Positions 17,484 to 59,284 of a stretch of DNA of 64,000 nt are shown piece after piece. A model generated the notes under the pieces. It was not told the DNA's origin, did no database searches, and saw only the letters and a program-made list of their open reading frames with translations. Source of the DNA: an uncultured Planctomycetales bacterium (GTDB taxonomy: Bacteria > Omnitrophota > Gorgyraeia > Zapsychrales > Fredricksoniimonadaceae). The stretch covers positions 518,518 to 582,517 of the forward strand of contig CAZNDZ010000001.1 of assembly GCA_964572155.1 (NCBI GenBank), written 5' to 3'. How positions within the stretch are numbered: position 1 is the stretch's first letter; every line of letters begins with the position of its first letter. Made by a program: the position numbers and the translations under genes.

Positions 17484-17980
17484 AGTTTTTGGTTGTGATG
17501 ATGGTAGCAATGATGCCTGTATCCGCGTTTGCCATGGCTGAACGTCAGCCTAAACAGGATCCTATGATCGGTACCGTAGCACCGGAATTTGTCCTAGATA
17601 CAATTTATAATGGTACAAAGAAACTGTCTGAGGCGCGTGCGGGTAAGAAGGCGGTTTTGTTCTTCTGGGCCACGTGGTGTCCACATTGTCATGAACAAAT
17701 AACACGTTTAAATAATAGTGTTGAATCTTTAAAGCGTCGTGGATACTCCGTCATCTTGGTTGATTTGGGAGAATCTATTGGGCAGGTGAAAGCTTTCTTG
17801 CAGTTTAACACGATCTTCTTAGATTCTTTTGTCGATCCAGACAATAGCTTGCAGGATCTATATCAAATCCAAGGTGTCCCAACCATCTTTTATCTAGATG
17901 AAAAGGGCGTTGTTGTTTCTGTTGATCATGAATTTGGTGGCAATGTCGACAGCATTTATAACGTCGAGAGAAAGAATTAA
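17459..17980 (+). CDS. TlpA/ResA-like periplasmic thiol-disulfide oxidoreductase (thioredoxin fold)
   Basis: Signal peptide and 'FWATWCPHC' CxxC active site. The likely start is ATG 17477. Confidence 0.75.
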   Translation: MVKGECMLKFLVVMMVAMMPVSAFAMAERQPKQDPMIGTVAPEFVLDTIYNGTKKLSEARAGKKAVLFFWATWCPHCHEQITRLNNSVESLKRRGYSVILVDLGESIGQVKAFLQFNTIFLDSFVDPDNSLQDLYQIQGVPTIFYLDEKGVVVSVDHEFGGNVDSIYNVERKN

Positions 17981-19446
17981 CGGTAAACGATCTTATTCTT
18001 TAAATCGGGTTGTACGTTAGCTTCCAGTTTTAACTTGTTAACGAACATCCCGATTTTTTCATTACGCTTTTGAGCGCTCACCATTTGTTTGAAGTCTTCA
18101 CGGTCAATATCAAATTTCTTTTCATCAATGGCTTCCTTGCTGCTTAAATAGGCAATGGCAGGCCCTTGTGAGGTTTCAATCACACCGCTTAATTTATTCG
18201 CATCATTTAACGCATAGCTATCTTGTTGGAATTCAGCAATTAAGCCCGGTGCATTGATGTATTCGCCACGGCTAAACGCGGTTGTTTCATCCAATTTCAA
18301 GTTAAGCTCTGTTGCAATGCTCTTGAAATCTTTGCTCTTGATGCGTTCTTTGATCGTCGACAAACTAGCAGCAGCTTTGGCTTTGGCTAATTCATACGCT
18401 TTGGCATTGGTAGCAACAGTTTTAACTTTTGCGATGATGGTTGTAAATTCTGGGGTCGCGCTGGCGCGTTTTTCTTTGATGCGAATGACCTGCCAGCCAT
18501 CGGGTGCTTCCATTGGGGAGCTTGATTCATTTTGTTTCATGGCAAAGATTTTATCGACAAATTCAGGTGACCAAGCAAAGGTCAATAGGGGTTGTTCTTG
18601 CGAAAAGAATCCGCTTGTTTGAAGTGTTTGACCATGTTTGGTTGCGATGGTAGCAAAATCAGCCTTAGGTGTTAGTTCATGACTGATGGCTGCGGCAGCA
18701 TCCTTGATGGCTTGCTTTTTCTTATCATCGGCTTTTTCTGGGTATAACAAATGGACATATTCAACATTAACCATGGGTGGTTCACGGAATGATTCTTTGT
18801 TGGCATCATAGTATTTTTTTGCATCGTCGTCAGAAATCGTGATCGAGCTTAAGAAATCCGTCGGTGAGATGAGGGCATAACTTAACTTGATCTTTTCGTT
18901 ACGCTTGATGTATTCGGCTTTAAGTTCGGCATCGGTAAATGTCACATTTCCGCCAACATTGTCGAGCAATTTACGGATGATCAAAGAACGTCTTGCGCCT
19001 GCTTCAAACTCTTTGACCTTACGATCAAAAATCCCAGCATTTTCAACAATGCGTTCATAAACATTTTGATCAAATTTGCCGTTGGTTTGGAAGAAAGGCA
19101 TAGTAGCAATGTATTCGACTACTTCCTTGTCGCTAACGGTGATATTTTGACGTTTGGCTTCACGTGACAAAATGATGCGGGTCCAAGCTTCGCGTTCAAA
19201 ATCAATGGATTGTCCCATCTTAAAGAAGCGATCTCCGTAGGAAATGATGGCTTGGTCACGGCTATCAAGATAAGCACGTTCAAATTCACGCAAGTTAACG
19301 GACTTGCCGTACACTTTGCCTGCGGTATTGATATTGTTATCTAAACGGTAGGCGGTACCAAAAACACCAAATGACAGGATGATGATGACCGCGACAACCC
19401 ATAAAATTTTTCGTGAAACACCTTTGTGGCGTAAAATGCTTAGCAT
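17977..19446 (-). CDS. Periplasmic chaperone / peptidyl-prolyl isomerase, PpiD-like (SurA-N domain, membrane-anchored)
   Basis: N-terminal TM anchor followed by SurA-N-like chaperone region and a parvulin-like segment. One of only two minus-strand genes. Confidence 0.6.
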   Translation of the reverse strand: MLSILRHKGVSRKILWVVAVIIILSFGVFGTAYRLDNNINTAGKVYGKSVNLREFERAYLDSRDQAIISYGDRFFKMGQSIDFEREAWTRIILSREAKRQNITVSDKEVVEYIATMPFFQTNGKFDQNVYERIVENAGIFDRKVKEFEAGARRSLIIRKLLDNVGGNVTFTDAELKAEYIKRNEKIKLSYALISPTDFLSSITISDDDAKKYYDANKESFREPPMVNVEYVHLLYPEKADDKKKQAIKDAAAAISHELTPKADFATIATKHGQTLQTSGFFSQEQPLLTFAWSPEFVDKIFAMKQNESSSPMEAPDGWQVIRIKEKRASATPEFTTIIAKVKTVATNAKAYELAKAKAAASLSTIKERIKSKDFKSIATELNLKLDETTAFSRGEYINAPGLIAEFQQDSYALNDANKLSGVIETSQGPAIAYLSSKEAIDEKKFDIDREDFKQMVSAQKRNEKIGMFVNKLKLEANVQPDLKNKIVYR

Positions 19447-19574
19447 AAAAGTTCCTTCAGTTTAAGTTGCATGTTAAAGAATTGTGCAATTATAAGGGAA
19501 GCGGGCCGCTTTGACAAGGGCTTGTTTGAAAAATGCCCATTTGCCTATATTTATATAATGTGGTATCTTTTGGG

Positions 19575-22500
19575 ATGGTTCGAAAGCTGTTTTCCCTAAT
19601 ACTATGTGTGCTTTTAATGCAAAGTCCGCAACTCCATGCAGATCAGCTGGTCCTTCCTGCCGGTCAGGCAGGTTTACCGCTGCCTGGAACCATGGTGCAT
19701 TTAAGTCCTTCGGTCAATCCTCCAATCCTTAAAGGTATGAAGGTTTTTAAGGATAATCCGTTCCGTTTTGATTTTATTATGGAACATGGCCAAGACAATG
19801 TTCAAGCCAATACCTTGGTTAAATATTTCTTAGCTGCTTTAACCACACCCGAACAAGACATGTGGGTTAATTTAAGTCCCTATGAAAAAGATCGCATTGT
19901 GCCAGACGGTTTTGGTCAAACTCAAATGGGTCGCGACCTTTTGGCGCAAGATTACATCTTAAAACAAATCACCGCGTCGCTGATTTATCCTGAAGATGCT
20001 GTAGGTAAAGAATTCTGGCGCCGTGTATATGCCACAAGCGCGAATAAGAATATCCCAATCAATACATTTAATAAAGTTTGGATTGTCCCCAATAAGGCTG
20101 TAGTTTACGAGAATGCTAAAGCAGGTACAGCCTATGTTGTTGAATCCTCGCTTAAAGTTTTAACAGAACAAGATTACTTAGCCAATCAACGTAATAAGTC
20201 TGAAGAAAACAATAATCAAATCATCAAAGATGTGGTCATTCCACAATTAACCAAAGAAATCAACGAAGGCGCCAATTTTGCCCAATTGCGTCAAGTCTAC
20301 AATGCCTTGATCTTAGCAACATGGTATAAGAAGAAAATCAAAAACAGCATCCTATCCAAAGTTTATGCTGATCAAAATCGGATAGCCGGCGTCAATATAG
20401 ATGATCCAGAAGAAAAACAAAAGATCTACGCACGTTACTTAGAAGCATTTAAAAAAGGCGCGTATAACTATATTAAAGAAGACACAGACACGCTTGGCGT
20501 GTCTGGACCTAGAAAGTATTTTTCTGGCGGTATGAAGATGGATATGACGATGATGCAAGTTGTTAATAATGCTCAAGTTAAACCCCTCGATCAAGCCATG
20601 GTAATTAAGGTAAAGCTAGAAGTGGCTTCTTTATTGATGAGAGTTGCTTTGGGTTTAAGTGAACAAGAGATGAGTTTTGTTAATTATATCAAATCGCTAG
20701 ATCTAAAAAATGGCAGTGACATCTTGGCTATTGGGGCAACACCAGAAAAAGAATTTCGATATGGCAAGCAACAGGTGCGTGTCGAGTTATTATTTGCTGC
20801 GCTCGATCATCATGTGACGTTATTTCAGCCATATTGGAATGCATGGGATACGGTGCTGGATCAATCTCCTTGGAAGAAGGTTAGAAAGATCGATTATTTC
20901 AAAGAAAAGTTTACCAGCGAGAGCAAAATCGCAAAACGTTCTCAAGATGTTGTTGTCATGATGGCGGTAATGTCGGCATTTACAACAAGCATTCCTTATG
21001 AGAAAAAGCTCGACCTGATGCAAGCCGCGTTGGATGCGTTAAAAGACGATGGTTATTTGATGTTGGGTTGGTACAACTGGGGTACATATCAAAATGGTGA
21101 TATTTCAGGAGAACGAGAAGAGTTTGATAGAACAAATCGAGTGATTGAGGCATTTAAACAAAAAGGCTATGTTTTTAATTTAGATAAAGAAGGTAGCAAT
21201 ACGGCGCATCGATGGCATGTGTATAAAGTAACAAAACCCGATTCAGCCATGGCAACACCTGCAGAAGAGGCGGCTAAGAAGCGTCAGCAGGAAATGGAAG
21301 AGATGGCGGTGAAGGTAGCGACAGAGATGCGAGATGAATGGGGCGCATATCTGCGTAAGAAGAATGATTCCAATTTGAACTATCGCATTGAGAAAGCCTT
21401 GATTGATCCTGTCAAAGGCATCGTTTCGAATTATCTATTAAAGAAAATAGGGCGTCCTCAAGCGATCAGAGAATTGTATGATTTAGGTATTAATAGGCGA
21501 TTATCAAATTCTATGTTGGATTGGGCTGGGAATTTATTTTATCGTGCCATTGATGTTCAAAATAAAACGCTAACGTTACAGGAACAGGTTGTACCATTCA
21601 CATTTGATCAAATGGGTTTAGGGATTAATAAAACAGAGGCAAGGGCTATAACGGCCGTTTATACCGAATATTTAAATTTAAGTGAAGGTCAAAGTGTTGA
21701 GGTGGAGCGATATTTAGTAGGTGATAGGGATTGGCCTTATTATGATTTAAATGAACAGAAGTTATTAGATTCCATATGGATGGATGTGAAGTATAAAATG
21801 TCTGACGATGCATTTGGAGAATTCTATAAAAAAGAAATGATAACAGATATCAAAAAGCCAGAGACCGTGGCTTTTCTTAAGGCACAAGGATATTCTGATA
21901 AACAAATTAACGAGATGGCCAAAGATGCAGGCGTCTTATGGAAGCGTTGGGAATTAATTGCGGCGGAAAGTAAAGAAAAGGATAGAGCGCAAGTGGCGCA
22001 AGATTGGTTAAAACGTTTAGATGGCATGGTGTTTGAGGGGAAGAATGGCAAAAAGTATCAGATGATTAATAGTCATTCGGCCTTATACCCCGAGGAGTAT
22101 TTTATTTTGAATGAAATGGATGCGGATAACAACATCGTCCAACATAATGCAGGGTATTTTAATATCACCATCAAGGATCAGCTGATTATCCTTCATGGTT
22201 TTGCGATGCACCGCATTGAAGATCGTAAGCAATCTATTTTAAGTCAGATATTACAAATATTCCCCCAAGGGTATGACATTGAGTTTGAAGATATGACCAA
22301 TCTTCCGACGTTGAGAGATATGTTGCAGGGGATGTTGAATCAAAATTTTGAAGGCAAATTGAAGCAACGTTTAGAATTGTATGCATCGCAAAGTCCTTTG
22401 CTTTCTGAGAAATCGCTCGATGACGTCGTGATGTCCAAAGAAGAACATCAGGCATTGATGAAATTGTTGGTTGATTATCGCGATTTATCAAAACAGCCAA

Positions 22501-22889
22501 AAGCAAACTTGAAAAGCCTTGAAACAATTGCCATGGAAGGTTTCTCTGGAAAAATTCTCGGTGGTGGAGGCATAAATAGCCCAGTTCGCATAGAATTCAA
22601 AAAAATCAATGACCTTGATGTTGTAAGCCTTTATGTGAAACGTACTAAAGATTCAGCCCAACAGGTTGAAACGCCACTACAACGCGGGGGTATTGATTTT
22701 AATGCGGATAAGATGCAATTAGAGGCGCAGCATGATGATGGGGGCATTGATTTTCAACTGGATCCGGCTCAAATAAAGCAATTTCAGGATGTTGAAGGGT
22801 TTACACCCAATATTTTAAGCATGCAACCCATTCCTGCTGGCCAAGATGGCATCAATGTGGTTAAGACGTTCTTAGGGATGACCCTTTAA
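19575..22889 (+). CDS. Giant secreted protein, paralog 1 (unrecognised family)
   Basis: Signal peptide 'MVRKLFSLILCVLLMQSPQLHA'. The N-terminal module from about nt 19650 to 20520 is paralogous to the N-terminus of the 40556 gene. The C-terminal roughly 65 aa, with 'GGIDF' twice and 'DPAQIKQFQDVEGFTPNIL', is paralogous to that gene's C-terminus. Start chosen at ATG 19575 because the conserved upstream element ends there. Confidence 0.8.
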   Translation: MVRKLFSLILCVLLMQSPQLHADQLVLPAGQAGLPLPGTMVHLSPSVNPPILKGMKVFKDNPFRFDFIMEHGQDNVQANTLVKYFLAALTTPEQDMWVNLSPYEKDRIVPDGFGQTQMGRDLLAQDYILKQITASLIYPEDAVGKEFWRRVYATSANKNIPINTFNKVWIVPNKAVVYENAKAGTAYVVESSLKVLTEQDYLANQRNKSEENNNQIIKDVVIPQLTKEINEGANFAQLRQVYNALILATWYKKKIKNSILSKVYADQNRIAGVNIDDPEEKQKIYARYLEAFKKGAYNYIKEDTDTLGVSGPRKYFSGGMKMDMTMMQVVNNAQVKPLDQAMVIKVKLEVASLLMRVALGLSEQEMSFVNYIKSLDLKNGSDILAIGATPEKEFRYGKQQVRVELLFAALDHHVTLFQPYWNAWDTVLDQSPWKKVRKIDYFKEKFTSESKIAKRSQDVVVMMAVMSAFTTSIPYEKKLDLMQAALDALKDDGYLMLGWYNWGTYQNGDISGEREEFDRTNRVIEAFKQKGYVFNLDKEGSNTAHRWHVYKVTKPDSAMATPAEEAAKKRQQEMEEMAVKVATEMRDEWGAYLRKKNDSNLNYRIEKALIDPVKGIVSNYLLKKIGRPQAIRELYDLGINRRLSNSMLDWAGNLFYRAIDVQNKTLTLQEQVVPFTFDQMGLGINKTEARAITAVYTEYLNLSEGQSVEVERYLVGDRDWPYYDLNEQKLLDSIWMDVKYKMSDDAFGEFYKKEMITDIKKPETVAFLKAQGYSDKQINEMAKDAGVLWKRWELIAAESKEKDRAQVAQDWLKRLDGMVFEGKNGKKYQMINSHSALYPEEYFILNEMDADNNIVQHNAGYFNITIKDQLIILHGFAMHRIEDRKQSILSQILQIFPQGYDIEFEDMTNLPTLRDMLQGMLNQNFEGKLKQRLELYASQSPLLSEKSLDDVVMSKEEHQALMKLLVDYRDLSKQPKANLKSLETIAMEGFSGKILGGGGINSPVRIEFKKINDLDVVSLYVKRTKDSAQQVETPLQRGGIDFNADKMQLEAQHDDGGIDFQLDPAQIKQFQDVEGFTPNILSMQPIPAGQDGINVVKTFLGMTL

Positions 22890-22954: not shown

Positions 22955-22974
22955 CCTGCCTGCCGGCAGGCAGG
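22955..22974. repeat. Perfect 20-bp palindrome CCTGCCTGCCGGCAGGCAGG in the hisG 5' region
   Basis: Read directly from the sequence; it is its own reverse complement. It lies 10 nt upstream of the hisG ATG. Related 17-mers, CCTGCCGGTCAGGCAGG, occur at 19656-19672 and 40643-40659. Confidence 0.9.
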
Positions 22975-22983
22975 ATAAAGAAT

Positions 22984-25915: not shown

Positions 25916-25986
25916 TGCCCGGTGGTGTAAAGGTAGCACCCGAGAATTTGGATCTCGTTGTCAAGGTTCGAATCCTTGCTGGGCAA
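25916..25986 (+). tRNA. tRNA-Gln (anticodon TTG)
   Basis: Acceptor stem TGCCCGG/CTGGGCA. Anticodon stem CGAGA/TCTCG with loop ATTTGGA, so the anticodon is UUG. T-arm AAGGTTCGAATCCTT (GTTCGAATC). Confidence 0.8.
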
Positions 25987-32365: not shown

Positions 32366-32379
32366 TTTTTGTTTCTTAA

Positions 32380-32408
32380 TTGACAGGATAAACCCCAACA
32401 CATATAAT
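32380..32408 (+). promoter_or_regulatory. Consensus sigma70 promoter (TTGACA-17 nt-TATAAT) immediately upstream of bamA
   Basis: Exact TTGACA at 32380-32385, a 17-nt spacer and TATAAT at 32403-32408. The ATG lies at 32415, so the predicted TSS is at or within a few nt of the start codon. Confidence 0.55.
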
Positions 32409-32414
32409 CACACC

Positions 32415-34820
32415 ATGCCTAAAAAATCACTCACATCCCTATTCTTTTTATTGTCCATTCTCATTTTAGCAGACGTTAAAACCACGTTGGCCCAAGAAGT
32501 TGCAGCAGATGCAACTGTTGAAGCGCCCTCGATGGAATTGAAGCAAGAAAGTCCAGCAGCGGCGGTCACCATGCCCTCCGAAGCGGCCCCAACCGCAAAG
32601 ATGGTTAAGTCAATTGATATCGTTGGCAATAAGTCTATTGGTATCACCCAAATTTTAGCGAAGATCAAGACCCGCGTTGGTCAAGAATATGTTGAAAATA
32701 TCGTTAGTGATGATTTAAAGCGTTTATATAATACTGGCCATTTTTCTGATGTTCAAATTGACCATCAAGATTTAGATGGTGGTTACAAAGTGATTGTTAA
32801 GCTCAAAGAAAAGCCCATCATCGAAGAAGTCACTTTCTCAAAATTGCGTTACTACAATAAGAAATTTATCGAAAGCAAAATCAAGACCAAGAAAGATAAA
32901 TTCTTAGATAACAAAACCCTTAAAGATGACATCAACATCATCGAAGATTTGTACAAGAAGAAGGGTTTGACCCAAGTTAAAGTGGATGTGGAAACATTCA
33001 TGGATGAAACAACCAACAAGGCAACGTTGCATTTTATCATCCGCGAAGGTTTTCGCATGAAGATAAAGCGCATCAATGTCTATGGCAACACCGCTTACCG
33101 TGATGAAAAGATCATCAAGGCCATGAAATCCCGTCCAGCTTGGTTATTTAATTCTGGGTTCCTCAAAGAAGAAGATTTAGAAGAAGATATGAACAAGGTT
33201 CAAGCCTTTTACGAACAAAACGGATACATTGACGCTAAAGCTTCATATAAAGTAGATCCGTTGTATAAGGGATTGGTGAATGTCGATGTTAGCGTTGAAG
33301 AAGGCAAACGTTATTACGTAGGTGATTTGGCCCTCGATGGTAATGCCGTCTTGTCTGAGCTTGATATCAAGACTAAGATCAAGAATATGCGCGAAGGCAA
33401 TGTCTTTAGCCGTGAGAAATTACAAGATGACGTGGCTGCAGTACGAGATGCTTATTTTGATCGTGGGTATATTTCTGCAACGGTTGTTGATGCAACATCA
33501 TTTAATTCTGAATCTGGTCGCGTTGACGTGAAATTATCTGTCAAAGAAGGCAAGTTGGCCTACATTGATAAAATTAAGATTCAAGGTAATGCCACCACAC
33601 GTGACATTGTTATCCGTCGTGAGTTGCGCATGTATCCAGGGGATCAATTCGATGGTGCCAAATTACGTAAATCAAAAGATCGTTTGCGCAATTTAGGTTA
33701 TTTCGAAGATGTGGGTTATGACATCGAAGATACAACCCAAGAAGACCAAAAGGATTTAGTTGTCCAAGTTAAAGAAGCCAAAACAGGCAGCTTCTCGTTT
33801 GGTGGTGGGTATAGTACCGTTGACAAATTGGTCGGCTTTATCGAATTGGAACAAAAGAATTTCGATATTGCGAACTGGCCTTCCTTTACAGGTGGTGGTC
33901 AAGACTTACGTATCCGTGGTGAAGTTGGGTCTTCACGTCAAAATGCAGAGTTAAGCTTTACCGAACCATGGGTGTTTGATTATCCTGTATCTGCTGGCTT
34001 TGACTTGTTTGTCACCAGCTTAAAGAAAGACAGTTCCACAGGGTATGCCTATGACGAACGTCGTACGGGTGGTGATTTACGTTTAGGTAAAAGCTTTAAC
34101 GATAATTTTAATATTGGTGGTTATTATCGTTTAGAACAAATCAAAATCAACAACCTTGATTCCAATGTGTCTGCAGATTTAGCGGCGGAAGAAGGTACAA
34201 ATGTGGTCAGTTCTGTTGGTGTGTCGAGCACCAATGATTATCGCGACAGTCCAATTATACCAACAACAGGTTTCACATGGCGCAATAGTGCTGACTTAGC
34301 GGGTGGTGCATTTGGTGGCGATAAAGATTTCTATCGCTTACAAACACAAGGAAATTATTACGCACCATTTAGATTCGATGAATTGTTAACAGTTTTAGAA
34401 GTTAGCGGTAAGACAGGTATTGTAAAAGCGTATGATAGTACGGCGCGCGTGCCTATCTTTGAACGTTACTTCGCTGGTGGTGCTAATACCATCCGTGGTT
34501 ACAACGAACGTAAAGTAGGTCCTTTGGATTCAAATACAAATGATCCTATCGGTGGTGAAACCATCTTGGTGGGTAGTGCAGAATACACCGTGCCGATCAT
34601 AGAAGTCATCAAAGCTGCTGTATTCTTCGACGTGGGTAATGTTTGGTCGAAGGCAAGTGATTGGGGCAGTGGCGGGATGAAGTCTGGTACAGGTTTAGGC
34701 TTACGCGTTAAGACGCCGATTGGTCCGCTAAAATTAGATTATGGCGTGCCATTGAGTAAAGAAGAAGGCGAAGAAAAGAAGAGCGGCAAGTTCTATTTCA
34801 GTGTCAGTCGAGGATTTTAA
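32415..34820 (+). CDS. bamA: Outer membrane protein assembly factor BamA
   Basis: Signal peptide, low-complexity linker and POTRA repeats. C-terminal Omp85 beta-barrel ending in an aromatic residue ('SVSRGF'). Confidence 0.85.
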   Translation: MPKKSLTSLFFLLSILILADVKTTLAQEVAADATVEAPSMELKQESPAAAVTMPSEAAPTAKMVKSIDIVGNKSIGITQILAKIKTRVGQEYVENIVSDDLKRLYNTGHFSDVQIDHQDLDGGYKVIVKLKEKPIIEEVTFSKLRYYNKKFIESKIKTKKDKFLDNKTLKDDINIIEDLYKKKGLTQVKVDVETFMDETTNKATLHFIIREGFRMKIKRINVYGNTAYRDEKIIKAMKSRPAWLFNSGFLKEEDLEEDMNKVQAFYEQNGYIDAKASYKVDPLYKGLVNVDVSVEEGKRYYVGDLALDGNAVLSELDIKTKIKNMREGNVFSREKLQDDVAAVRDAYFDRGYISATVVDATSFNSESGRVDVKLSVKEGKLAYIDKIKIQGNATTRDIVIRRELRMYPGDQFDGAKLRKSKDRLRNLGYFEDVGYDIEDTTQEDQKDLVVQVKEAKTGSFSFGGGYSTVDKLVGFIELEQKNFDIANWPSFTGGGQDLRIRGEVGSSRQNAELSFTEPWVFDYPVSAGFDLFVTSLKKDSSTGYAYDERRTGGDLRLGKSFNDNFNIGGYYRLEQIKINNLDSNVSADLAAEEGTNVVSSVGVSSTNDYRDSPIIPTTGFTWRNSADLAGGAFGGDKDFYRLQTQGNYYAPFRFDELLTVLEVSGKTGIVKAYDSTARVPIFERYFAGGANTIRGYNERKVGPLDSNTNDPIGGETILVGSAEYTVPIIEVIKAAVFFDVGNVWSKASDWGSGGMKSGTGLGLRVKTPIGPLKLDYGVPLSKEEGEEKKSGKFYFSVSRGF

Positions 34821-38464: not shown

Positions 38465-39266
38465 AAAAATAATTGGCTTAATTGCAGGGAACAATCAATT
38501 TCCTTTCCTCTTTGCCCGTGCTGCTAAAGATCAAGGCTATTGTGTGATTGCTGCAGGTGTTATTGGTGACACATCGCCGCTTCTCTTTTTCTTCGTCGAT
38601 AAATTAAAATATTTTAAAGTGGGCGAGTTAACCAAGCTTTTTGCTTATTTTCGCCAATTTGGCGTGAGTGAAGTGATCATGGCTGGCCAAGTTAATCCAG
38701 ATAATTTGTTTAACCCCAATGTTAAGTTGGATCCTGAGTTTCAAAGCCTTGCCGATGCCCTGCGTGATCGTAAGACCGACACCATCTTTGGTGCTGTGGC
38801 AGATCGTTTGGGAAAAGAAGGTATGACCTTGCTTGATTCGACGATGTTGCTAAAAAAATATTTGTCACCAAAAGGCACATTGACCAAACGGGGCCCAACA
38901 AAGTCAGAATTAGATGACATTGAATTTGGGTTTGGTCTAGCAAAATCCATGGGTGGGATCGATGTGGGTCAGACGGTGGTTGTTAAAGAAAAAGCCATTG
39001 TTGCCATTGAAGCCATGGAAGGCACCGATAAAGCCATTCTACGTGGTGGCGCCATCGCACATAGTGGTGCTGTGATTGTCAAAACATCTAAGCCCAAACA
39101 AGATAGTCGTTTTGATGTGCCAGTCATTGGCCCGCGCACCATTGACAATATGATCAAGATTCAAGCCGCATGCCTTTGCATTGAAGCCGGCAAAACCCTC
39201 ATCATAGACATCGATCAAGTCCTCAAGAAAGCCAACGATAACAACATCTGCATCGTCGCTGCTTAA
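38433..39266 (+). CDS. lpxI: UDP-2,3-diacylglucosamine hydrolase LpxI (DUF1009)
   Basis: 'IGLIAGNNQFPFLFARAAKDQG' and the C-terminal 'DVGQTVVVKEKAIVAIEAMEGTD' are LpxI-like. Sits directly after lpxA. Confidence 0.6.
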   Translation: MSKTLNVASPKKIIGLIAGNNQFPFLFARAAKDQGYCVIAAGVIGDTSPLLFFFVDKLKYFKVGELTKLFAYFRQFGVSEVIMAGQVNPDNLFNPNVKLDPEFQSLADALRDRKTDTIFGAVADRLGKEGMTLLDSTMLLKKYLSPKGTLTKRGPTKSELDDIEFGFGLAKSMGGIDVGQTVVVKEKAIVAIEAMEGTDKAILRGGAIAHSGAVIVKTSKPKQDSRFDVPVIGPRTIDNMIKIQAACLCIEAGKTLIIDIDQVLKKANDNNICIVAA

Positions 39267-40477
39267 GGCCGCAAATCCAAAAATGGTTTTTCAATTAAGG
39301 TGTATAAGAGTACGGAAAGCGCCATTGTCATTAAACCACTGATGAGACCAACATAAACAATGTCTGTGGCTTGGATGTGTTGACCATGATACCAGCGTTG
39401 TAGTGTGATAAAGATAACAATGGGTTGAATCAAGTAAGCCGCATATGAAATTTTGGCAATAGGGTACCAGATTTTTAAGTTTAAGAATTGCTGGATGTTT
39501 CTTCCAATCAAAGTTTTGGAGAATGAGAGCATAAATAGTGCGCATGCCCCCAAAGCAAACCAATATCGATAAGTGGCCATATAAAAATTTCCAAGCGGGA
39601 TTTCCCAGTCACCATAATTTATTCTTCCTAAGATCCAGCCTAGCGTCAATATGGATGCGAACAATAAAGTGTATGCCCATCGTTTTAAATTGATGAATTT
39701 AAAAAAGGATTCGTGTTGAACCAAATAAGCAACACAAACACCGAGAAGCAATGGGCCATAACGCGTGTGTAGTTTGTCGTAGAGCAAGTCATAGTATCTT
39801 AGGAAATGCGTTGTATCCGTCGGGTGAAGCGCTGGATGTATCATAAAATAAAATGTGTAACCGTTTTTGTATGTTAAAAATATGTTGATGAAGAAACCAA
39901 TAATCAGAAGAGTTGAAATGATTAGGTGAGGTTTAAGTTTTTTGCGATAGATGAATAAGATTAGAAAAGGACAGATGATGTAAAATTGCTCTTCAACAGC
40001 TAGAGACCAGCCCCATGGCATAAATTGATTTAAATCTGAAATGAAATTATTGATGAAAATGAGATTTGCCCATGCATTGTGGATATTCTGGGATGTGTTT
40101 TTTGTAAAAAAAGCCAAGGCGCAAAATATTACTATGATCACATAATATAAAGGAGCAATGCGCATGAAGCGGCGCAGCAAGAAACGTAGCACATTTAATG
40201 TTTGGGTGTGGTGTATTTCTTGAAGCAATAAATTGCCTATTAAGAATCCACTGATGAGAAAAAAGATGTCCACACCAAAATGTCCATGCAGAAACCAACG
40301 TAGATATGGAGCATTAAAGAGTTCTTTGGTTTCGTTTGGTGGGAGAAACTCAGCAAAGAGTAAAATAACGTGAAAGGCAAAGCTCCAGATAATGGCTAAT
40401 GCGCGCATGCCATCAATGTGGTTATAGCGCCCTTCATTGCGGATAAAGATGGATCTAATATTTGCTTGGATATTCAT
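39263..40477 (-). CDS. Acyltransferase family 3 (OafA/OatA-like integral membrane O-acyltransferase)
   Basis: 'IDGMRALAIIWSFAFHV' AT3 motif. Ten or more TM segments. Confidence 0.7.
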   Translation of the reverse strand: MNIQANIRSIFIRNEGRYNHIDGMRALAIIWSFAFHVILLFAEFLPPNETKELFNAPYLRWFLHGHFGVDIFFLISGFLIGNLLLQEIHHTQTLNVLRFLLRRFMRIAPLYYVIIVIFCALAFFTKNTSQNIHNAWANLIFINNFISDLNQFMPWGWSLAVEEQFYIICPFLILFIYRKKLKPHLIISTLLIIGFFINIFLTYKNGYTFYFMIHPALHPTDTTHFLRYYDLLYDKLHTRYGPLLLGVCVAYLVQHESFFKFINLKRWAYTLLFASILTLGWILGRINYGDWEIPLGNFYMATYRYWFALGACALFMLSFSKTLIGRNIQQFLNLKIWYPIAKISYAAYLIQPIVIFITLQRWYHGQHIQATDIVYVGLISGLMTMALSVLLYTLIEKPFLDLRP

Positions 40478-40555
40478 AATATTATTAAGTTTCGTCCTTG
40501 ATCCTCATTCTATCAAAAACTAGCGTTTATATAGATAATATGGTATCTTTTGTTC

Positions 40556-43500
40556 ATGCCTCAGAAGTTTTGGTCTTTAATTTTGATGATATGTTTATTG
40601 CCCATGCCGCAAGTCCATGCAGGAGAAAGTGTTATAAGCCTGCCTGCCGGTCAGGCAGGCCTGCCTGTGCCTGGGACCATGGTTCATTTAAGTGCGCCAA
40701 CTAACCCTGTTTTGCTTAAAGGGATAAAAGTTCATCAGGATAATCCATTCAAATTTGAATTCGTAATAGATAAAGGCACCGTAGAGACGCCATTGATGGC
40801 GTCTAATACAACGATCGAAAATGAATCTAAAAAATTAATCAAATATTTTCTTGCCGCGCTAACCATCCCTGAAAAAGATCTATGGGTTAACTTAAGTCCC
40901 TACGAAAAAGACCGCATTGTGCCTGAAAGTTTTGGCCAAACCCAAATGGGCCGCGACTTACTCGCCCAAGACTATATTTTAAAACAAATCACCGCAAGTT
41001 TGATTTATCCAGAAGACACGATTGGCAAAGAATTCTGGCGACGCGTCTATGAAGCCTCCGCAGACAAAAATACTTCGATCAACACCTTTAATAAAGTCTG
41101 GATTGTTCCTAATAAAGCCAAAGTGTATGAGAATGCAAACGCAGGCACAGCCTATGTTGTTGAATCTTCCCTAAAAGTTTTAACAGAACAAGATTACGTC
41201 GCCACAAACAAAAATACCGTACAGACGCGATTTATCGCGTCTCAATCAACCCAAAATATCATCAAAGACATTGTCATCCCGCAATTAACCAAAGAAGTCA
41301 ACGAAGGCGCCAATTTCGCGCAGCTGCGACAAGTCTACAATGCCTTAATCCTAGCAACGTGGTACAAGAAAAAAATCAAAGACAGCATTCTGGCACAAGC
41401 CTACGCCGACAAAAACAAAATCGCAGGCACCCAATATCAAGACAATTTAAACCCAGAACAAATTTATGCGCGTTATCTCGAAGCGTTTAAAAAAGGCGCG
41501 TTTAATTACATTAAAGAAACTGACATGTCAAATGGCATAACCGTTCCAAGAAAATATTTCTCCGGCGGGGCCAACCTTCAAGTTTCGCAGGCGATGACAG
41601 CATCAGACAAAGAGCCAGTAACGACGGGTCATGAGTTTGTGGTTGAAGCAAAGCTTGAATCACCATCCATGAAAGATTATCGTGAAAGGTTAAAAAATGA
41701 ATACTATCATGCGCTCTCCACAGGGCAAAAAGTTATTGATATCACCGCATATTTAGGGTCTGCGGCAGTAAAAGGATTATTTAATGATGGATTTGTGTTT
41801 GAGTTGGATGGTTTTAAGCCAGGAAATATCTCAAATGGGCTTGGTCATGGAAAAGTAGAAGATCGGATTATTATGGAAGATCAAGGAGATCAGCGTATTT
41901 TTAAGCGAATTCGTAAGAATGCTAAATATCCTGATGGAAATATTGTTGTCTATTCTATTTGGCATAAGACACAAAAGAAGGATGAGCACTCGAATGGCAT
42001 GGTATGGGAAAGAGATTATGCACCTTTTGAAGATCGGAGCATAGATATTGAAAATAAATCCCCGTTTAATTCAAAACAGCGTTTTTATGAAGATATTGAG
42101 CGGGAATATAAAGATTTTCCTGGGACTATTGGCATTGCTAAGTTAATTTTTGAAGTTAATAAATTGGAATACAATAAATCAAGAATTGGATCGCTTGTTG
42201 GAAAACGATTACGTCCAACAAATTCTGATGGAAGCAGCACGTTTTCATTGATTAAAGGAAAGATTAAGATACCTGTTTTAGGTACAACTGATGATCTGCA
42301 TACATGGGATCCGGTCATTGTTAGTGAACGCATGGATGAGAATAGCTACGAATTTACTGTCCAGTCAACAACGGATGGCATGGAGCCTATAGAGCGTACA
42401 TTTCGTATAGGGAAAAAGACAAAACAGATAATGTGGAGGGGGCGCGGTAAAACTATTTATGTCATTGAACCTGTTGATCGGGTACCTGTGCAAGTGATGC
42501 AACGTTTGATTGACGCAAGAAAGCCTTTTAATGTTACACGAACTCTTGAAGCATTGAAAGCTATTGAAGGGCAAAATATTGATGTTACTGAAGACACAGG
42601 ACAAATTAAAGTATTCTTTGGAAATGGTGAGTTTTATCGGTGGGCTGTGTTAGGCATGCGGCAAGCTGGTTGGAAGGTTAAGGTGCTGGGAGCTAAGCCT
42701 TCTAGGACAGGTGATTCAATTATTCTTTCAATGATATTAAATAAGCTTAGTGGGCAACATGTTATCAAAGTTTTTGAGTTTGGTAAGAAGGTTGCGATTT
42801 CAAAGCGTGGTTTTAAACATTTTGTGATGGAGCCTGTTAAGTTTAAAGACCTTAGACAGGCGATGAGTGTGAGCGGTTCATATTTGAAAAACGATCTAAA
42901 GTTATTGAGTTTTGATATGACAAATACGATAAGAATCGTTTTTGCCGATGGTAATATTCGATCGAATAAGTATTTAGTATCTTATTCAATTAAACGTTAT
43001 CAGGAAAGATTTGGAAAGAAGGTTGCAGTGGGCGCTGGGCGTGTATTTCATCATGTTCAATTTGATAAAGACGAAGTTGATGATGAAGAAAATAATGCAA
43101 TGTTAGCAGAAGATTTCCCTCATCCAGGAAATAAAACCAGAGTAAATGAATTGAAAGTTGAAGCGCATGATTGGCTTGTTAAATTGCTTCGACGAGAATA
43201 TGGTAATTCGGTTGCTTTTGAGACGTTGGTTGATTCGGCAAAAGATAAGAGTTTTTATTTGGGGAAATTGGGTGCAGGGAAAATTGTTTTGCCGATTTAT
43301 GCGGACAAAGATTATACGCGGCAATTGTTAGATTCTTCTTTCTCGAAGAAGGCTGATGAGCGGTCTGGTTGGGAAACATGGTTGACGAATGTGCGTATGC
43401 TTCATGGTAGCGTCTGGTTTAATTTTGTTTTGATTAAACGAGAGATGGTTGATGGGGTTGAGCAGAAAAGAAAGATTGTGCAGGAGTATGTTGTTAATCC

Positions 43501-46500
43501 GTATATCACAAGGGATGTTCTTTTAATCGATGGAAAGGATATTGATGTTTTAGAAATTGTTAAAGCTGAAAATTTTCCGTCGCGCATGTTAAGTGCGTTT
43601 ATGTTGCGCCCTAATGACTTTGAGAAATTAAAGCCAATGATGTTGGCGTTACAGGGAAGCTTTTTTGGTTTGACACATACAGCAGGTGAAGTTCTTTTTG
43701 CTGTACCTAATAAGTTATATCCTGAAAAGAATTTATTCCTGATTGATAAGTCTGCAGGGGTTGAAGATAAAACACAATGGCATGCGGTTATGAAGAAAGT
43801 TAATTTTCACGATCAAGTGGTAGATTTTACGTTTGGTGTTAGTAAAGATGATACGGTATTGCCAGATGTGAATTTTCAAGCAAGCCCTGCGCTTCAAGAG
43901 CTTTCTGTTAATATTCATGATAAGCAAAAGACCCTAGATGTCATGACCTTAGACAAACGATTGGCTGTTAGAGGATTAGAAAAATTTGCATTATTCGGCG
44001 GCAGTGCGCAGGATTTGATTAAAAGTGGGTTCACCCTTAAAGGGACATCTTTTGGGGAAGTGAATGCCGCTGGTGCCGTGAGCATAACCCCTTGGTCGGG
44101 CCATTCTTATGCAGTGCCAATATCTGGTTTAAAAGATAATGGTGGTCGCGTAGCGATCATTGATGAATATATCTATACGTACTCGCAAGGGAATAAAATC
44201 CGTTATGAATTTACAGCATCAACAATAAAAGATGGAGAAATGCCGTTTCTTCGAAAGTTTATAGCTAGTAAAAATGTTGGCGATAGTTCGTTTGAATCTT
44301 TTGATATTCAGCCAGATGAATCATTTGATGCGCAACAGGCATTAGAAGCAACGTTAAAGCATATTCAGCGTTTGAATGGCGTGAAAATTAAAGTTACGAG
44401 TGGTGAGAATCCACGTCTAAGGGTTATTAATAGAAAATTCGGATTATATTTTCATTCCATATATTTTCAAGGTTTGCAGCCAGGAACCTATGATATGAAA
44501 GTTCAACAAAAAGGAAGAACTGGGGAGTTTAAAGTAACAATGAAAGGAATGAGAGAAACATTGATATATAGGATCAATGCTGATGAACAGCTAAATTTAG
44601 AGACAAATATCAGACCATCTGGCGACGATATTGGTCAAAACGAGTTTGATAAGTTTATATTAGATTTTCGCTCAAAACATCCGAATGATTGGGTTCAAGC
44701 AATACGACAGGATGATCAAAAGCTGAGGGTATATTGGAAAAGCAGTGATGGGAATATTTATCGCACCATTGTAACGGAAGATTTTCTAAAGAGCCTTGGA
44801 TATAGGAATGTTAAATTCAAATTACTTGAAGAAGACAGCAAAGAATATGCTTTGGTTAAGGATGCGATAGACACGAAAACCATGTATGCAACAAAGCATT
44901 TTTTGAAAGTTCAAGCGCAAGATGAATTCCCGCAAGAATATCTACGAAATAAAGAAGGTCTGAAGCGAATTTATGCCGCAACACCTGCGGTTGTTGGGCT
45001 TTCTCAATTGATGTTCGAAGGAATAAAAGGCAAGGAAAGCAAAGAGGTCTTAAAATCTTTAGTTGGTCAAACATTGCCCATTACAGATAAACAAGGAAGA
45101 AGTATATTTGCGATCTTTCCTAATTTTAGCATCAATTTATCGGTCATAGGAACAATGGAAGCAGGTTGGCAGCCTACGGTTTCAAAAGTTGGGATTAATG
45201 AATTAGGATATTTTGAATTTACCATAAGGTCGACGAAGGAAGGCAAAGTGCCAGTAGAGAGAACATTTGAAATAGGACGATTCAAGAAGAAATTCACATG
45301 GAATAATCTCGACGTATTTGTCTATAACTTAATTTCTGTTGAACGTATTCGTCTCATCATTTTAAAGAGGGTCGTTAAGAAGAAGGGGCGATTCAATGCG
45401 CCCAAAGTGAGTGTTTTGTTAAATCAATTAAGGGGTGTTGATTTAGGTCCTTCTTTACCGGGGGGGCAATTAAACATTTATCTATCAACAAATAAACGGA
45501 TGGCATGGTATTTTGCATCAGAAGCGGGTCGGACGATGCGTATATTAGATGCGCGTGTTAGTGACGCTAATGATTCAGTGCTTATTACGACATTGATTGA
45601 GCATACGGTGGGATCGTATTCAATACGAGTGTATGAACTAGGCAAAGAATATGTAGTGGTCAAGAAAGGCTTAGAACACTACACATTTAATCCTGTTTCT
45701 TTTAATAATCAAAATCAAGCAATACGGTTTATTAAGCCTGCCATCATTGGTTTAGATAAGCCTTTAGCGCGCGATCCATTTCTTTCGAATGTTGTTCTTG
45801 AGTTTCCGGATGTCTTAGAAAAAGAGAAGGTAGTGGTGATCCACAATGGAGAATATTATTCACTATTTCCAAAAGAAGAAAAAATGTATGTAGATCGAAC
45901 ATTCTCAGAGGTCAGAAGGGTTTTACAAGAAAGGGCTGTTCGTGATTTTATACAAGGTGATGCGTATAACGCATTGCCACTTAATCGAAGGCTAGGTGCT
46001 TTTATTAAGTTTATTCGCTCAAATGAATACTTTCATGGTGTTGGAAATATGGGAAAGATTTGGAATGCTTTACAGAAACTTGAGGATGAAGAACTTGAAA
46101 ATGAATTAGATTGGGGAAAGATTGGTGGATATAGCATTTTGTATAAAGATTATGAGCGGTTGGTTTCTATTTTAGAGCAAAAAGAAGTTTCTGGGTTCAT
46201 CGAAGAAAAGATAGTCAAGGGTCATATAATCCCTAAGTTAAGCATCAAGTTTTTGCGACGACATTTATTACAAGAACATGCTACTTTTATGTCCCGCATT
46301 CCATTGATGGATTTATACTTAGCCATCCCAATGCAATACCGCAGTCATTTTGCAAGACCAGACGCCGCCATGCTCACAACGTCTGAATCGAATACCGGTG
46401 GGATCGATCTAACAGCCGATCAAATGAATCTCCAAACCAAATCCCAAGATCAACAATCCATGGCCTTTCATATGGATCCAGCTCAGTTGGCTCAGGTGCA

Positions 46501-46576
46501 AAATGCAGAAGGGTTTGAGCCGGTGATTGTTAGTGTTTTGCCGTTGACTGATCTGCATGCGTTTTTGACGCGTTAG
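40556..46576 (+). CDS. Giant secreted protein, paralog 2 (about 2000 aa) with internal about 170-aa repeats (unrecognised family)
   Basis: Signal peptide 'MPQKFWSLILMICLLPMPQVHA'. N-terminal about 300 aa and C-terminal about 65 aa are paralogous to the 19575 gene. At least three internal repeat copies are anchored by 'YEFT-x-x-ST-x-[DE]G-x-x-P-x-x-R-x-F'. Confidence 0.8.
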   Translation: MPQKFWSLILMICLLPMPQVHAGESVISLPAGQAGLPVPGTMVHLSAPTNPVLLKGIKVHQDNPFKFEFVIDKGTVETPLMASNTTIENESKKLIKYFLAALTIPEKDLWVNLSPYEKDRIVPESFGQTQMGRDLLAQDYILKQITASLIYPEDTIGKEFWRRVYEASADKNTSINTFNKVWIVPNKAKVYENANAGTAYVVESSLKVLTEQDYVATNKNTVQTRFIASQSTQNIIKDIVIPQLTKEVNEGANFAQLRQVYNALILATWYKKKIKDSILAQAYADKNKIAGTQYQDNLNPEQIYARYLEAFKKGAFNYIKETDMSNGITVPRKYFSGGANLQVSQAMTASDKEPVTTGHEFVVEAKLESPSMKDYRERLKNEYYHALSTGQKVIDITAYLGSAAVKGLFNDGFVFELDGFKPGNISNGLGHGKVEDRIIMEDQGDQRIFKRIRKNAKYPDGNIVVYSIWHKTQKKDEHSNGMVWERDYAPFEDRSIDIENKSPFNSKQRFYEDIEREYKDFPGTIGIAKLIFEVNKLEYNKSRIGSLVGKRLRPTNSDGSSTFSLIKGKIKIPVLGTTDDLHTWDPVIVSERMDENSYEFTVQSTTDGMEPIERTFRIGKKTKQIMWRGRGKTIYVIEPVDRVPVQVMQRLIDARKPFNVTRTLEALKAIEGQNIDVTEDTGQIKVFFGNGEFYRWAVLGMRQAGWKVKVLGAKPSRTGDSIILSMILNKLSGQHVIKVFEFGKKVAISKRGFKHFVMEPVKFKDLRQAMSVSGSYLKNDLKLLSFDMTNTIRIVFADGNIRSNKYLVSYSIKRYQERFGKKVAVGAGRVFHHVQFDKDEVDDEENNAMLAEDFPHPGNKTRVNELKVEAHDWLVKLLRREYGNSVAFETLVDSAKDKSFYLGKLGAGKIVLPIYADKDYTRQLLDSSFSKKADERSGWETWLTNVRMLHGSVWFNFVLIKREMVDGVEQKRKIVQEYVVNPYITRDVLLIDGKDIDVLEIVKAENFPSRMLSAFMLRPNDFEKLKPMMLALQGSFFGLTHTAGEVLFAVPNKLYPEKNLFLIDKSAGVEDKTQWHAVMKKVNFHDQVVDFTFGVSKDDTVLPDVNFQASPALQELSVNIHDKQKTLDVMTLDKRLAVRGLEKFALFGGSAQDLIKSGFTLKGTSFGEVNAAGAVSITPWSGHSYAVPISGLKDNGGRVAIIDEYIYTYSQGNKIRYEFTASTIKDGEMPFLRKFIASKNVGDSSFESFDIQPDESFDAQQALEATLKHIQRLNGVKIKVTSGENPRLRVINRKFGLYFHSIYFQGLQPGTYDMKVQQKGRTGEFKVTMKGMRETLIYRINADEQLNLETNIRPSGDDIGQNEFDKFILDFRSKHPNDWVQAIRQDDQKLRVYWKSSDGNIYRTIVTEDFLKSLGYRNVKFKLLEEDSKEYALVKDAIDTKTMYATKHFLKVQAQDEFPQEYLRNKEGLKRIYAATPAVVGLSQLMFEGIKGKESKEVLKSLVGQTLPITDKQGRSIFAIFPNFSINLSVIGTMEAGWQPTVSKVGINELGYFEFTIRSTKEGKVPVERTFEIGRFKKKFTWNNLDVFVYNLISVERIRLIILKRVVKKKGRFNAPKVSVLLNQLRGVDLGPSLPGGQLNIYLSTNKRMAWYFASEAGRTMRILDARVSDANDSVLITTLIEHTVGSYSIRVYELGKEYVVVKKGLEHYTFNPVSFNNQNQAIRFIKPAIIGLDKPLARDPFLSNVVLEFPDVLEKEKVVVIHNGEYYSLFPKEEKMYVDRTFSEVRRVLQERAVRDFIQGDAYNALPLNRRLGAFIKFIRSNEYFHGVGNMGKIWNALQKLEDEELENELDWGKIGGYSILYKDYERLVSILEQKEVSGFIEEKIVKGHIIPKLSIKFLRRHLLQEHATFMSRIPLMDLYLAIPMQYRSHFARPDAAMLTTSESNTGGIDLTADQMNLQTKSQDQQSMAFHMDPAQLAQVQNAEGFEPVIVSVLPLTDLHAFLTR

Positions 46577-46640
46577 CCTGCGTATACTTGACGAATACAA
46601 ATGAATATTGTATATTCATATTAAGTACAAGGGGGTTTTT

Positions 46641-46883
46641 ATGTCAAAGACGGTGACCATTCGTTTAAATGATGATGATTACAAACAAATTGCAAGTGCG
46701 GCACAGCAAGAACGTCGACCGATTTCAAATTTTATTACGCATACGGTGTTAGATGTTTTAGCTAGCATTAATGTGGTCGATGATGTTGAAATGCAGGAAA
46801 TTTTATCGGATGCGAGTTTGGTTAAGAAACTAAAACGTGGTCATGCGCAAGTAGCGACTAGAAAAGGAAAATTTGTTGAATAG
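46641..46883 (+). CDS. Ribbon-helix-helix (CopG/ParD-like) antitoxin
   Basis: 'MSKTVTIRLNDDDYKQIASAAQQERRPISNFITHTVL' is a beta-strand then helix-helix RHH signature. The ATG at 46641 follows an AAGGGGG RBS. It overlaps the toxin start. Confidence 0.6.
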   Translation: MSKTVTIRLNDDDYKQIASAAQQERRPISNFITHTVLDVLASINVVDDVEMQEILSDASLVKKLKRGHAQVATRKGKFVE

Positions 46884-47160
46884 TTTCCGTATATTTGAAA
46901 CGGAAGGTTTTCAAGAGGATTTAGACCAAATCTTGGGTAGTAAATTTGAAAAGGTTTATGAAAAGCTCAAATTATTTGTTTATCCGCAGTTGATGTCCCA
47001 ACCGTACTTTGGAAAAAATATTAAGAAATTAAAGAATTATAAACCAGACACATGGCGCTATCGCATTGCGGATATTAGGCTTTTCTATCAAATTGATGGG
47101 AAAGGAAAAGTTGTGCTTATGGCCGCAGCTGATTTACGAAAAGATGCATATAAGCATTAA
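46873..47160 (+). CDS. RelE/ParE-family type II toxin
   Basis: 'WRYRIADIRLFYQIDGKGKVVLMAAADLRKDAY' matches the RelE/ParE C-terminal core. A TTG start overlaps the antitoxin stop by 11 nt. Confidence 0.6.
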   Translation: MLNSFRIFETEGFQEDLDQILGSKFEKVYEKLKLFVYPQLMSQPYFGKNIKKLKNYKPDTWRYRIADIRLFYQIDGKGKVVLMAAADLRKDAYKH

Positions 47161-53070: not shown

Positions 53071-53118
53071 GGTCTGACACGGTATTGTATTTATAATAGT
53101 TTAACCAGGAGGCAGAAA

Positions 53119-59220: not shown

Positions 59221-59284
59221 GGCCTGCCGCTCTCTGCGGCATGCACGGTATCATATTTGTAATAGAATAACCAGGAGCTAATAA

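Follow-up and report, generated by a model that had tools for sequence, protein, structure and literature searches.

Putative sigma-70-type extended -10 promoters set against the start codons of two paralogous genes for large secreted proteins in Omnitrophota

The analysis concerns a window of 64,000 nucleotides (nt), that is, the whole stretch of DNA under study (contig CAZNDZ010000001.1 of assembly GCA_964572155.1, positions 518,518 to 582,517, from an uncultured Omnitrophota bacterium), and in it the dodecamer TGGTATCTTTTG, located directly upstream of two plus-strand paralogous genes, paralog 1 (coding sequence (CDS) 19575..22889, 1104 amino acids (aa)) and paralog 2 (CDS 40556..46576, 2006 aa). 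At site 1, the order is TTTATATAAT (19550-19559), g, the dodecamer (19561-19572), gg and ATG (19575-19577); at site 2, it is TTTATATAGATAAT (40526-40539), a, the dodecamer (40541-40552), ttc and ATG (40556-40558). A first-pass annotation had described a conserved element at both starts, and this element is real: the dodecamer matches at 12/12 positions, occurs in exactly two copies in the 64-kilobase (kb) window and ends 2-3 nt 5' of ATG 19575 and ATG 40556; at site 2 the element is present as described, apart from beginning at 40526, one base earlier than had been given. The proposed search for further copies adjoining start codons was run on the window and returned only the two exact copies; with up to two mismatches, 10 matches were found against 8.6 expected, none of them adjoining a start codon, and the dodecamer was rejected as a widespread motif for the window.

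According to the sequence, the N-termini of both proteins are Sec-type signal peptides (MVRKLFSLILCVLLMQSPQLHA, followed by DQ). In paralog 1, the signal peptide is followed by a conserved N-terminal domain of ~340 aa, a variable remainder and a conserved C-terminal segment of ~60 aa; the first ~340 residues are 63% identical between the two paralogs (BLASTP), and the C-terminal segment of ~60 residues is likewise common to both. Nearly all genes of the window are on the plus strand and tightly packed, and the two paralogs are exceptional in that each follows a minus-strand gene: a SurA-like peptidyl-prolyl isomerase (PPIase) gene (17977-19446) precedes paralog 1 with 128 nt of intergenic DNA, and an acyltransferase-3 gene (39263-40477) precedes paralog 2 with 78 nt. 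Because these upstream neighbours are divergently oriented, each paralog needs a promoter of its own within the 128 or 78 nt.

Within this DNA, all on the plus strand, a set of putative promoter parts was found at both sites. For paralog 1, a -35-like hexamer TTGCCT (19541..19546), placed 17 nt 5' of the hexamer TATCTT and belonging to the T(T/G)G type seen at this offset in the family, is followed by a 17-nt AT-rich spacer (19547..19563), which holds TATAAT (19554-19559), the TRTG-type motif TGTG (19559-19562) and a TGn extension (19561-19563). The dodecamer (19561..19572) comprises this TGn, the putative -10 hexamer TATCTT (19564-19569) and the three bases with which the discriminator begins; the whole discriminator between 19569 and ATG 19575 is TTGGG. 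For paralog 2, the -35 position is weak (TAGCGT, 40521..40526, also 17 nt 5' of TATCTT), and the 17-nt spacer (40527..40543) contains the family spacer motif TATATAGATAAT (40528-40539), including GATAAT (40534-40539), and ends (40539-40543) with the TRTG-type TATG (40539-40542) and TGn (40541-40543); the dodecamer (40541..40552) again consists of TGn, TATCTT (40544-40549) and TTG, and the discriminator between 40549 and ATG 40556 is TTGTTC. The ATG is thus 5 nt (paralog 1) or 6 nt (paralog 2) past the hexamer, with the first T of TATCTT 11 and 12 base pairs (bp) 5' of the ATG, respectively. In both copies TGG stands immediately 5' of TATCTT, so that TG is present at -15/-14, and TATCTT has A at position 2 (A2) and T at position 6 (T6).

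That the dodecamer is the best-conserved block would be explained by its uniting the TGn, the putative -10 hexamer and the first discriminator bases. The sole mismatch just 5' of it, G in paralog 1 and A in paralog 2, is explained by its place at the R position of the TRTG-type -16 motif, an element that comes from the literature on Gram-positive promoters. No Shine-Dalgarno (SD) core (GGAG, GAGG or AGGA) was found between hexamer and ATG at either window site, in agreement with the first-pass annotation, and the 15-16 nt that it had given from TATAAT or GATAAT to the ATG are confirmed (site 1, 15 nt; site 2, 16 nt).

Identity between the paralogs amounts to 49% at four-fold degenerate sites and 56% in the signal-peptide codons, against 12/12 in the dodecamer, whose identity is therefore not a neutral remnant; under neutrality, a 12/12 run (17/18 with ATAAT) directly before the ATG would be an event of ~1e-4. 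Upstream similarity fades ~40 nt before the ATG, and the intergenic regions beyond about -40 do not align, which bears out the earlier claim of a shared promoter region in so far as the two regions are homologous and their conservation extends from about -40 up to the ATG. In another genome, locus L006 has the exact dodecamer 5' of a homolog whose protein is 58% identical (...ATGTGGTATCTTTTGaatataATG), and L014 has TTATATAGATTATATGGTATCTTTATTGCATG, a near-copy of the paralog-2 sequence with a dodecamer match of 10/12. At the homologous place of L036, the sole syntenic ortholog of paralog 2 that was found, the order is TGGCAA, 17 nt, TAGACT, 6 nt, ATG; compared with paralog 2, the inner bases of the hexamer are changed (TAGACT versus TATCTT), and A2, T6 and all distances are kept.

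For the comparison across the family, 80 loci were fetched from genome assemblies and 80 from metagenomes (L001-L160). A composite promoter was defined as T[TG]G, 16-18 nt to a hexamer with A2 and T6, and 3-11 nt from there to an in-frame ATG or GTG. Paralog 1 passes this definition, whereas paralog 2 fails at T(T/G)G, its TAGCGT having 2/6 matches to a -35 hexamer. The arrangement was found at 49/76 genome-assembly loci and at 53/76 non-redundant metagenome loci, none of which had been used in deriving the motif, giving 102/152 non-redundant loci overall as compared to 4.1% of random ATG triplets. Although the filter admitted 16-18 nt, 81 of the 102 positives share a spacing of exactly 17 nt between -35 and -10. 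The commonest hexamers among all 102 are CATACT (29), TATACT (24), CATATT (9), TATATT (6) and TATCTT (4); TG at -15/-14 is present in 33/102, versus ~6% expected from composition, and T at -6, which the filter did not demand, in 90/102. The start is ATG in 94/102, with an SD core within 20 nt of it in 1/102, and the distance from hexamer to start is 5-10 nt with a mode of 6 (6 nt in 30 loci, 8-9 nt in 42).

Within 50 nt of the family starts, ATACTT is enriched 24-fold and ATAGAT/TATATA 16-17-fold. An expectation-maximization (EM) motif search not anchored at the start codons returned [T/G]n[T/C]ATA[C/T]TT[A/T] and aligned GG-TATCTT-TT of the window with TATACT/CATACT of the family. An alignment of 43 promoters, anchored by the -10 hexamer only, brought out two further features: T(T/G)G(c), 16-18 nt 5' of the hexamer in essentially every promoter, and a peak of ATG 6 nt 3' of it. 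The anatomy, its conservation and its geometry are direct observations. Two loci, L144 and L155, keep TATACT (~25 nt 5' of the start), but have a leader of 17-24 nt with GGAGAGG/AGGAG before the ATG, and may show how members of one family switch in nature from leaderless to SD-led initiation or back. Since L144 and L155 keep the hexamer with SD leaders, and L036 keeps A2, T6 and the distances, the hexamer appears to go with transcription and not with the start codon. Among the 80 metagenome loci, no transcript-like contigs beginning at the ATG were found.

The starts proposed in the first-pass annotation, ATG 19575 and ATG 40556, in place of the longer open reading frame (ORF) calls, are supported as the likely true ones. 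With these starts the paralog proteins align from M1. Owing to an in-frame TAG at 40532, paralog 2 can start only at TTG 40550 or ATG 40556; for paralog 1, a transcript from the putative promoter (-35 at 19541, -10 at 19564) would not include the ORF start at 19533, which precedes both elements. The ORF-track starts would then be wrong, 19533 by 14 codons and 40550 by 2 codons, both too early, and the same rule for starts could correct the annotation across a family of >1000 proteins.

Taken together, we consider it probable, at about 0.65, that the conserved stretch is a sigma-70-type extended -10 promoter set against the start codon, and that the messenger RNA (mRNA) of both genes is leaderless or nearly so. 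From the anatomy and its conservation we infer recognition by the polymerase, the position of the start site and translation without a leader. The polymerase would be the housekeeping (sigma-70-type) enzyme, which would recognise the core promoter of each gene by the -35-like hexamer, the 17-nt AT-rich spacer, the extended -10 of TGn/TRTG type, TATCTT and the discriminator of 5-6 nt. The A of the ATG would then stand at the usual start of transcription: the A of ATG 40556, 6 nt past the hexamer, would be the canonical +1, and in paralog 1, with its 5 nt and the preceding GGG, either the A or a base 1-3 nt 5' of it would be the first one transcribed. The mRNA would accordingly begin at the AUG or 1-3 nt before it and be translated as a leaderless message, without an SD interaction. 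The dodecamer would be identical in the paralogs as part of an inherited architecture, which selection would keep across the Omnitrophota family. With the same layout at 102/152 family loci and the near-absence of SD cores, near-leaderless translation, which the first-pass annotation had considered possible, appears the most likely mode. A TANNNT motif ~12 bp upstream of the start is a described signature of leaderless genes (PMC3160421), which has been experimentally validated as a true -10 in Deinococcus (PMC12340547); the distances of 11 and 12 bp in the window fall on this signature, as does the family mode of 6 nt, equal to 12 bp.

Several points weigh against a plain promoter of this kind. 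The transcription start sites of both genes are predictions, and the start codons of the homologous loci were inferred, not annotated. Both promoters are weak by E. coli rules: paralog 1 scores 8/12, and a consensus promoter scan with a threshold of 9/12 calls neither of the two plus-strand promoters. Paralog 2 has practically no -35, and its promoter would have to depend on the TGn extension. The 5-nt spacer of paralog 1 and the GGG before its ATG could place the start 1-3 nt upstream of the ATG or inside it, and many family members have a spacer of 8-10 nt, which corresponds to leaders of 1-4 nt, not strictly none. TATAAT and GATAAT, 10 nt upstream, could act as alternative or tandem -10 hexamers. 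Finally, a generic promoter does not account for the T at -6 (90/102), for the C in position 5 of the hexamer or for the spacer motif TATATAGATA with its floating position.

The upstream hexamers were the -10 of the first-pass annotation. If TATAAT (19554-19559) and GATAAT (40534-40539) had this function, transcription would start at ~19566 and ~40546, and the dodecamer would be an SD-less leader of ~9-10 nt, unless the two hexamers at each site formed tandem promoters. TATAAT matches the consensus perfectly, L014 and L036, the loci with the most closely related promoters, have the -10-like GATTAT in its place, and AT-rich spacers of the family often hold -10-like hexamers at offsets -10, -7 and -5. 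We nevertheless regard this alternative as unlikely. Both hexamers lie inside the 17-nt spacer, and in the sequence no TTG-type -35 stands 16-18 nt before them and no TG extends them; at offset -10, a -10-like hexamer is present in 9/43 family promoters, whereas T(T/G)G stands 16-18 nt from the downstream hexamer in all 43; and L006, with its exact dodecamer, is without a -10-like hexamer at the upstream offset. An SD-less leader of ~9 nt furthermore suits neither known route of initiation, and the genome uses AGGAG SD sites elsewhere. TATAAT and GATAAT may be secondary promoters, particularly as GATTAT is kept in L014 and L036. The dodecamer itself, which the first-pass annotation had taken for a leader or the site of a common regulator, is probably neither: it contains the putative -10 TATCTT with its TGn, and the promoter reading requires no regulator.

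In addition to a housekeeping promoter or in its place, the element could be a family-specific regulatory signature, read by an alternative or group-2 sigma factor, or by a factor that binds across spacer and -10 (TATATAGATA ... TATACTT), and co-regulating the paralogs. The T at -6, the C at hexamer position 5 and a 15-19-fold enrichment of the spacer motif TATATAGAT would suit such a signature, as would the many paralogs per genome and the resemblance of the family consensus CTATACTT(A/T) to the extended -10 of E. coli sigma-S, TCTATACTTAA (PMC3367168). The window, however, has G at -13 and TATCTT, not TATACT, and C at -13 is found in only 16/102 positives; the spacer motif floats by 4-7 nt relative to the hexamer; and CATACT/TATACT is also the -10 at genes outside the family (L001, L034). 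An inverted-repeat operator, suggested by AAGTATA...TATACTT in L011, L027 and L025, was rejected as a general feature, being no commoner than in partner-permuted controls (mean best length 3.77 versus 3.83 in 43 promoters). We hold this explanation to be improbable. There is a small chance that a dedicated group-2 sigma or promoter-bound regulator serves a regulon of dozens of fast-evolving paralogs for large secreted proteins per Omnitrophota genome; its tentative marks would be the near-invariant T at -6, the C at hexamer position 5, TATATAGATA and a conservation above that of the signal peptide, and if real, it would imply that a variable repertoire of surface or secreted proteins is expressed from leaderless transcripts, either in concert or one to the exclusion of others. 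Shared ancestry alone, with the element as a remnant of duplication or of gene conversion at the 5' end and the promoter match as coincidence, is strongly disfavoured and very improbable. The genes are indeed paralogs and their similarity starts ~40 nt before the ATG, but the dodecamer stands far above neutral sites and signal-peptide codons, recurs exactly in L006 and at 10/12 in L014, and of 152 loci with a protein identity of 50-65%, about two thirds have the architecture.

The layout of a promoter against the start codon, as in the favoured explanation, also occurs at genes outside the family. In the window, bamA (32370-34820; TIGR03303, E = 4e-170) has TTGACA, 17 nt, TATAAT, 6 nt and ATG 32415, and this essential housekeeping gene is predicted to be leaderless as well. 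Comparable layouts were found in L065 (TTGACT, 17 nt, TATATT, 6 nt, ATG), L001 (TTGAAA, 17 nt, CATACT, 7 nt, ATG) and L056; such non-family control promoters come from ~30-50 genes with uncertain starts and serve as qualitative examples only. The leaderless layout may thus be a general mode of expression in the phylum that this family uses predominantly. The window genome also uses SD sites, with AGGAGG before clpC at 53119 and AGGAG before the gene at 59285. These two genes, clpC-like (53119) and PIN/TRAM (YacL-like, 59285), are a second pair with a common promoter/leader (53078-53118 and 59244-59284), consisting of CACGGTATnnTATTTRTAATAG, ~8 nt and AACCAGGAG, a match of which none is expected by chance. 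Together with a McsB-like kinase (52012) and RadA (57850) nearby, the region resembles the Gram-positive ctsR-clpC-radA-yacL cluster; the element common to the pair, however, is no CtsR box.

Upstream of paralog 1, the SurA-like gene has a divergent promoter of its own on the minus strand (19489..19517; near-consensus TTGTCA, 17 nt, TATAAT), so that the intergenic region of 128 nt holds two back-to-back promoters. Inside both paralog CDSs, 82-88 nt in, lies a GC-rich hairpin CTGCC-N5-GGCAG (19657-19672, 40640-40659), with the exact 16-mer CTGCCGGTCAGGCAGG in common (0.14 such matches expected by chance). L006 (2586-2600), which also carries the exact dodecamer, has a hairpin at the equal relative position (+85) with a different loop, and a related perfect palindrome, CCTGCCTGCCGGCAGGCAGG, is located in the leader of hisG, the gene that follows closely after paralog 1 (22955-22976). 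Local stems are predicted, yet folding z-scores of the whole region are not significant. In L036 (1604-2501), the family gene directly follows lpxI with a gap of 69 nt, whereas in the window the minus-strand acyltransferase-3 gene lies in between; the degraded -35 of paralog 2 (TAGCGT versus TGGCAA in L036) is consistent with an insertion beside the promoter. The 711-nt gap after paralog 2 contains two small overlapping ORFs (46608-47160), candidates by eye for a ribbon-helix-helix antitoxin (MSKTVTIRLNDDDYKQI...) and a RelE/ParE-type toxin.

A search with the N-terminal domain returned 1166 proteins, of which those with a named source are almost all from Candidatus Omnitrophota/Omnitrophica. 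The family thus comprises >1000 secreted proteins with a common N-terminal domain, is restricted to Omnitrophota and is often present in many copies in the individual genomes among the homologous loci. The paralogs, including the N-terminal domain of ~330 aa (within 19575-20630 and 40556-41680), had no match in Pfam or NCBIfam, and an AlphaFold model of that domain (mean predicted local distance difference test (pLDDT) score 72.6) gave no significant fold match in the PDB. The middle regions of the family proteins are highly variable, whereas the C-terminal ~60 aa are conserved. Among 5.8 billion proteins searched, none exceeds 66% identity to the N-terminal domain. The family evolves fast, as judged from L036, which is 58% identical in the N-terminal domain as compared to 84% in the adjacent LpxI.

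Our literature search returned no report of promoter structure or leaderless genes for Omnitrophota, an uncultured phylum known for giant secreted proteins. The arrangement of a promoter against the start is already known, but apparently not yet described for this phylum, so that the present analysis would be the first sequence-level picture of its promoter architecture and of probable leaderless expression in it. It reveals no new mechanism; the element is of a known kind, and what is new is the phylum and the gene family that have it. For gene finders and metatranscriptomes, it provides the search pattern T(T/G)Gc, 17 nt, (TG)n, TATACT-T, ~6 nt, ATG.

A number of other element classes were compared and rejected. 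Sigma-54 promoters have TGGCAC-N5-TTGC, with the GG and GC elements 12 nt apart; the window copies are without TGGCA, and family members with TGGCA are without TTGC at the required distance (L011: TGGCACGAAGTATAT). The sigma-A promoter of Bacteroidota has TAnnTTTG at -7 and TTTG at -33, whereas TATCTTTTG reads TA-nnn-TTTG, one base too long, and the organism belongs to Omnitrophota. A cis-regulatory RNA leader was rejected since an Rfam search of the window matched only the transfer RNA (tRNA) gene at 25916-25986, and an invertible promoter since there are no inverted repeats around paralog 1 and, for paralog 2, only 10-11-nt chance pairs inside the CDS.

The -10 region can be compared with the extended -10 (TGn) and -16 TRTG promoters, which were reportedly described by Voskuil and Chambliss in 1998 for E. 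coli and Gram-positive bacteria. As in these, T(G/A)TG-n stands directly 5' of the hexamer in the window copies (TGTGg, TATGg), and such an extension can offset a poor -35, as paralog 2 needs; TG is present in 32% of the family promoters. In contrast to that class, only a third of the family promoters have TG in the right register, and its function here is predicted. The extended -10 of sigma-S promoters, TCTATACTTAA (PMC3367168), is similar to the family consensus (C)TATACTT(A/T) in the C at hexamer position 5 and the T at -6. A sigma-S promoter was nonetheless rejected: C at -13 and TATACT-T would be needed, but the window copies show G at -13 and the hexamer TATCTT; C(-13) occurs in only 16/102 positives, and RpoS is not known in the phylum.

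The overall layout can be compared with the TA-led leaderless genes of Actinobacteria and Deinococcus-Thermus (PMC3160421, PMC12340547). In both, the first T of TANNNT lies ~12 bp from the start (11 and 12 here), an SD is absent, the start is ATG, a -35 stands at 17+/-1 nt where present, and the arrangement is conserved across orthologs. The genes described here differ in that they belong to Omnitrophota, in that they form one large paralog family and have SD-led genes beside them in the same window, and in their hexamer, which is AT-rich and more specific (TATACT/CATACT/TATCTT, then T) than the degenerate TAnnnT of the high-GC phyla.

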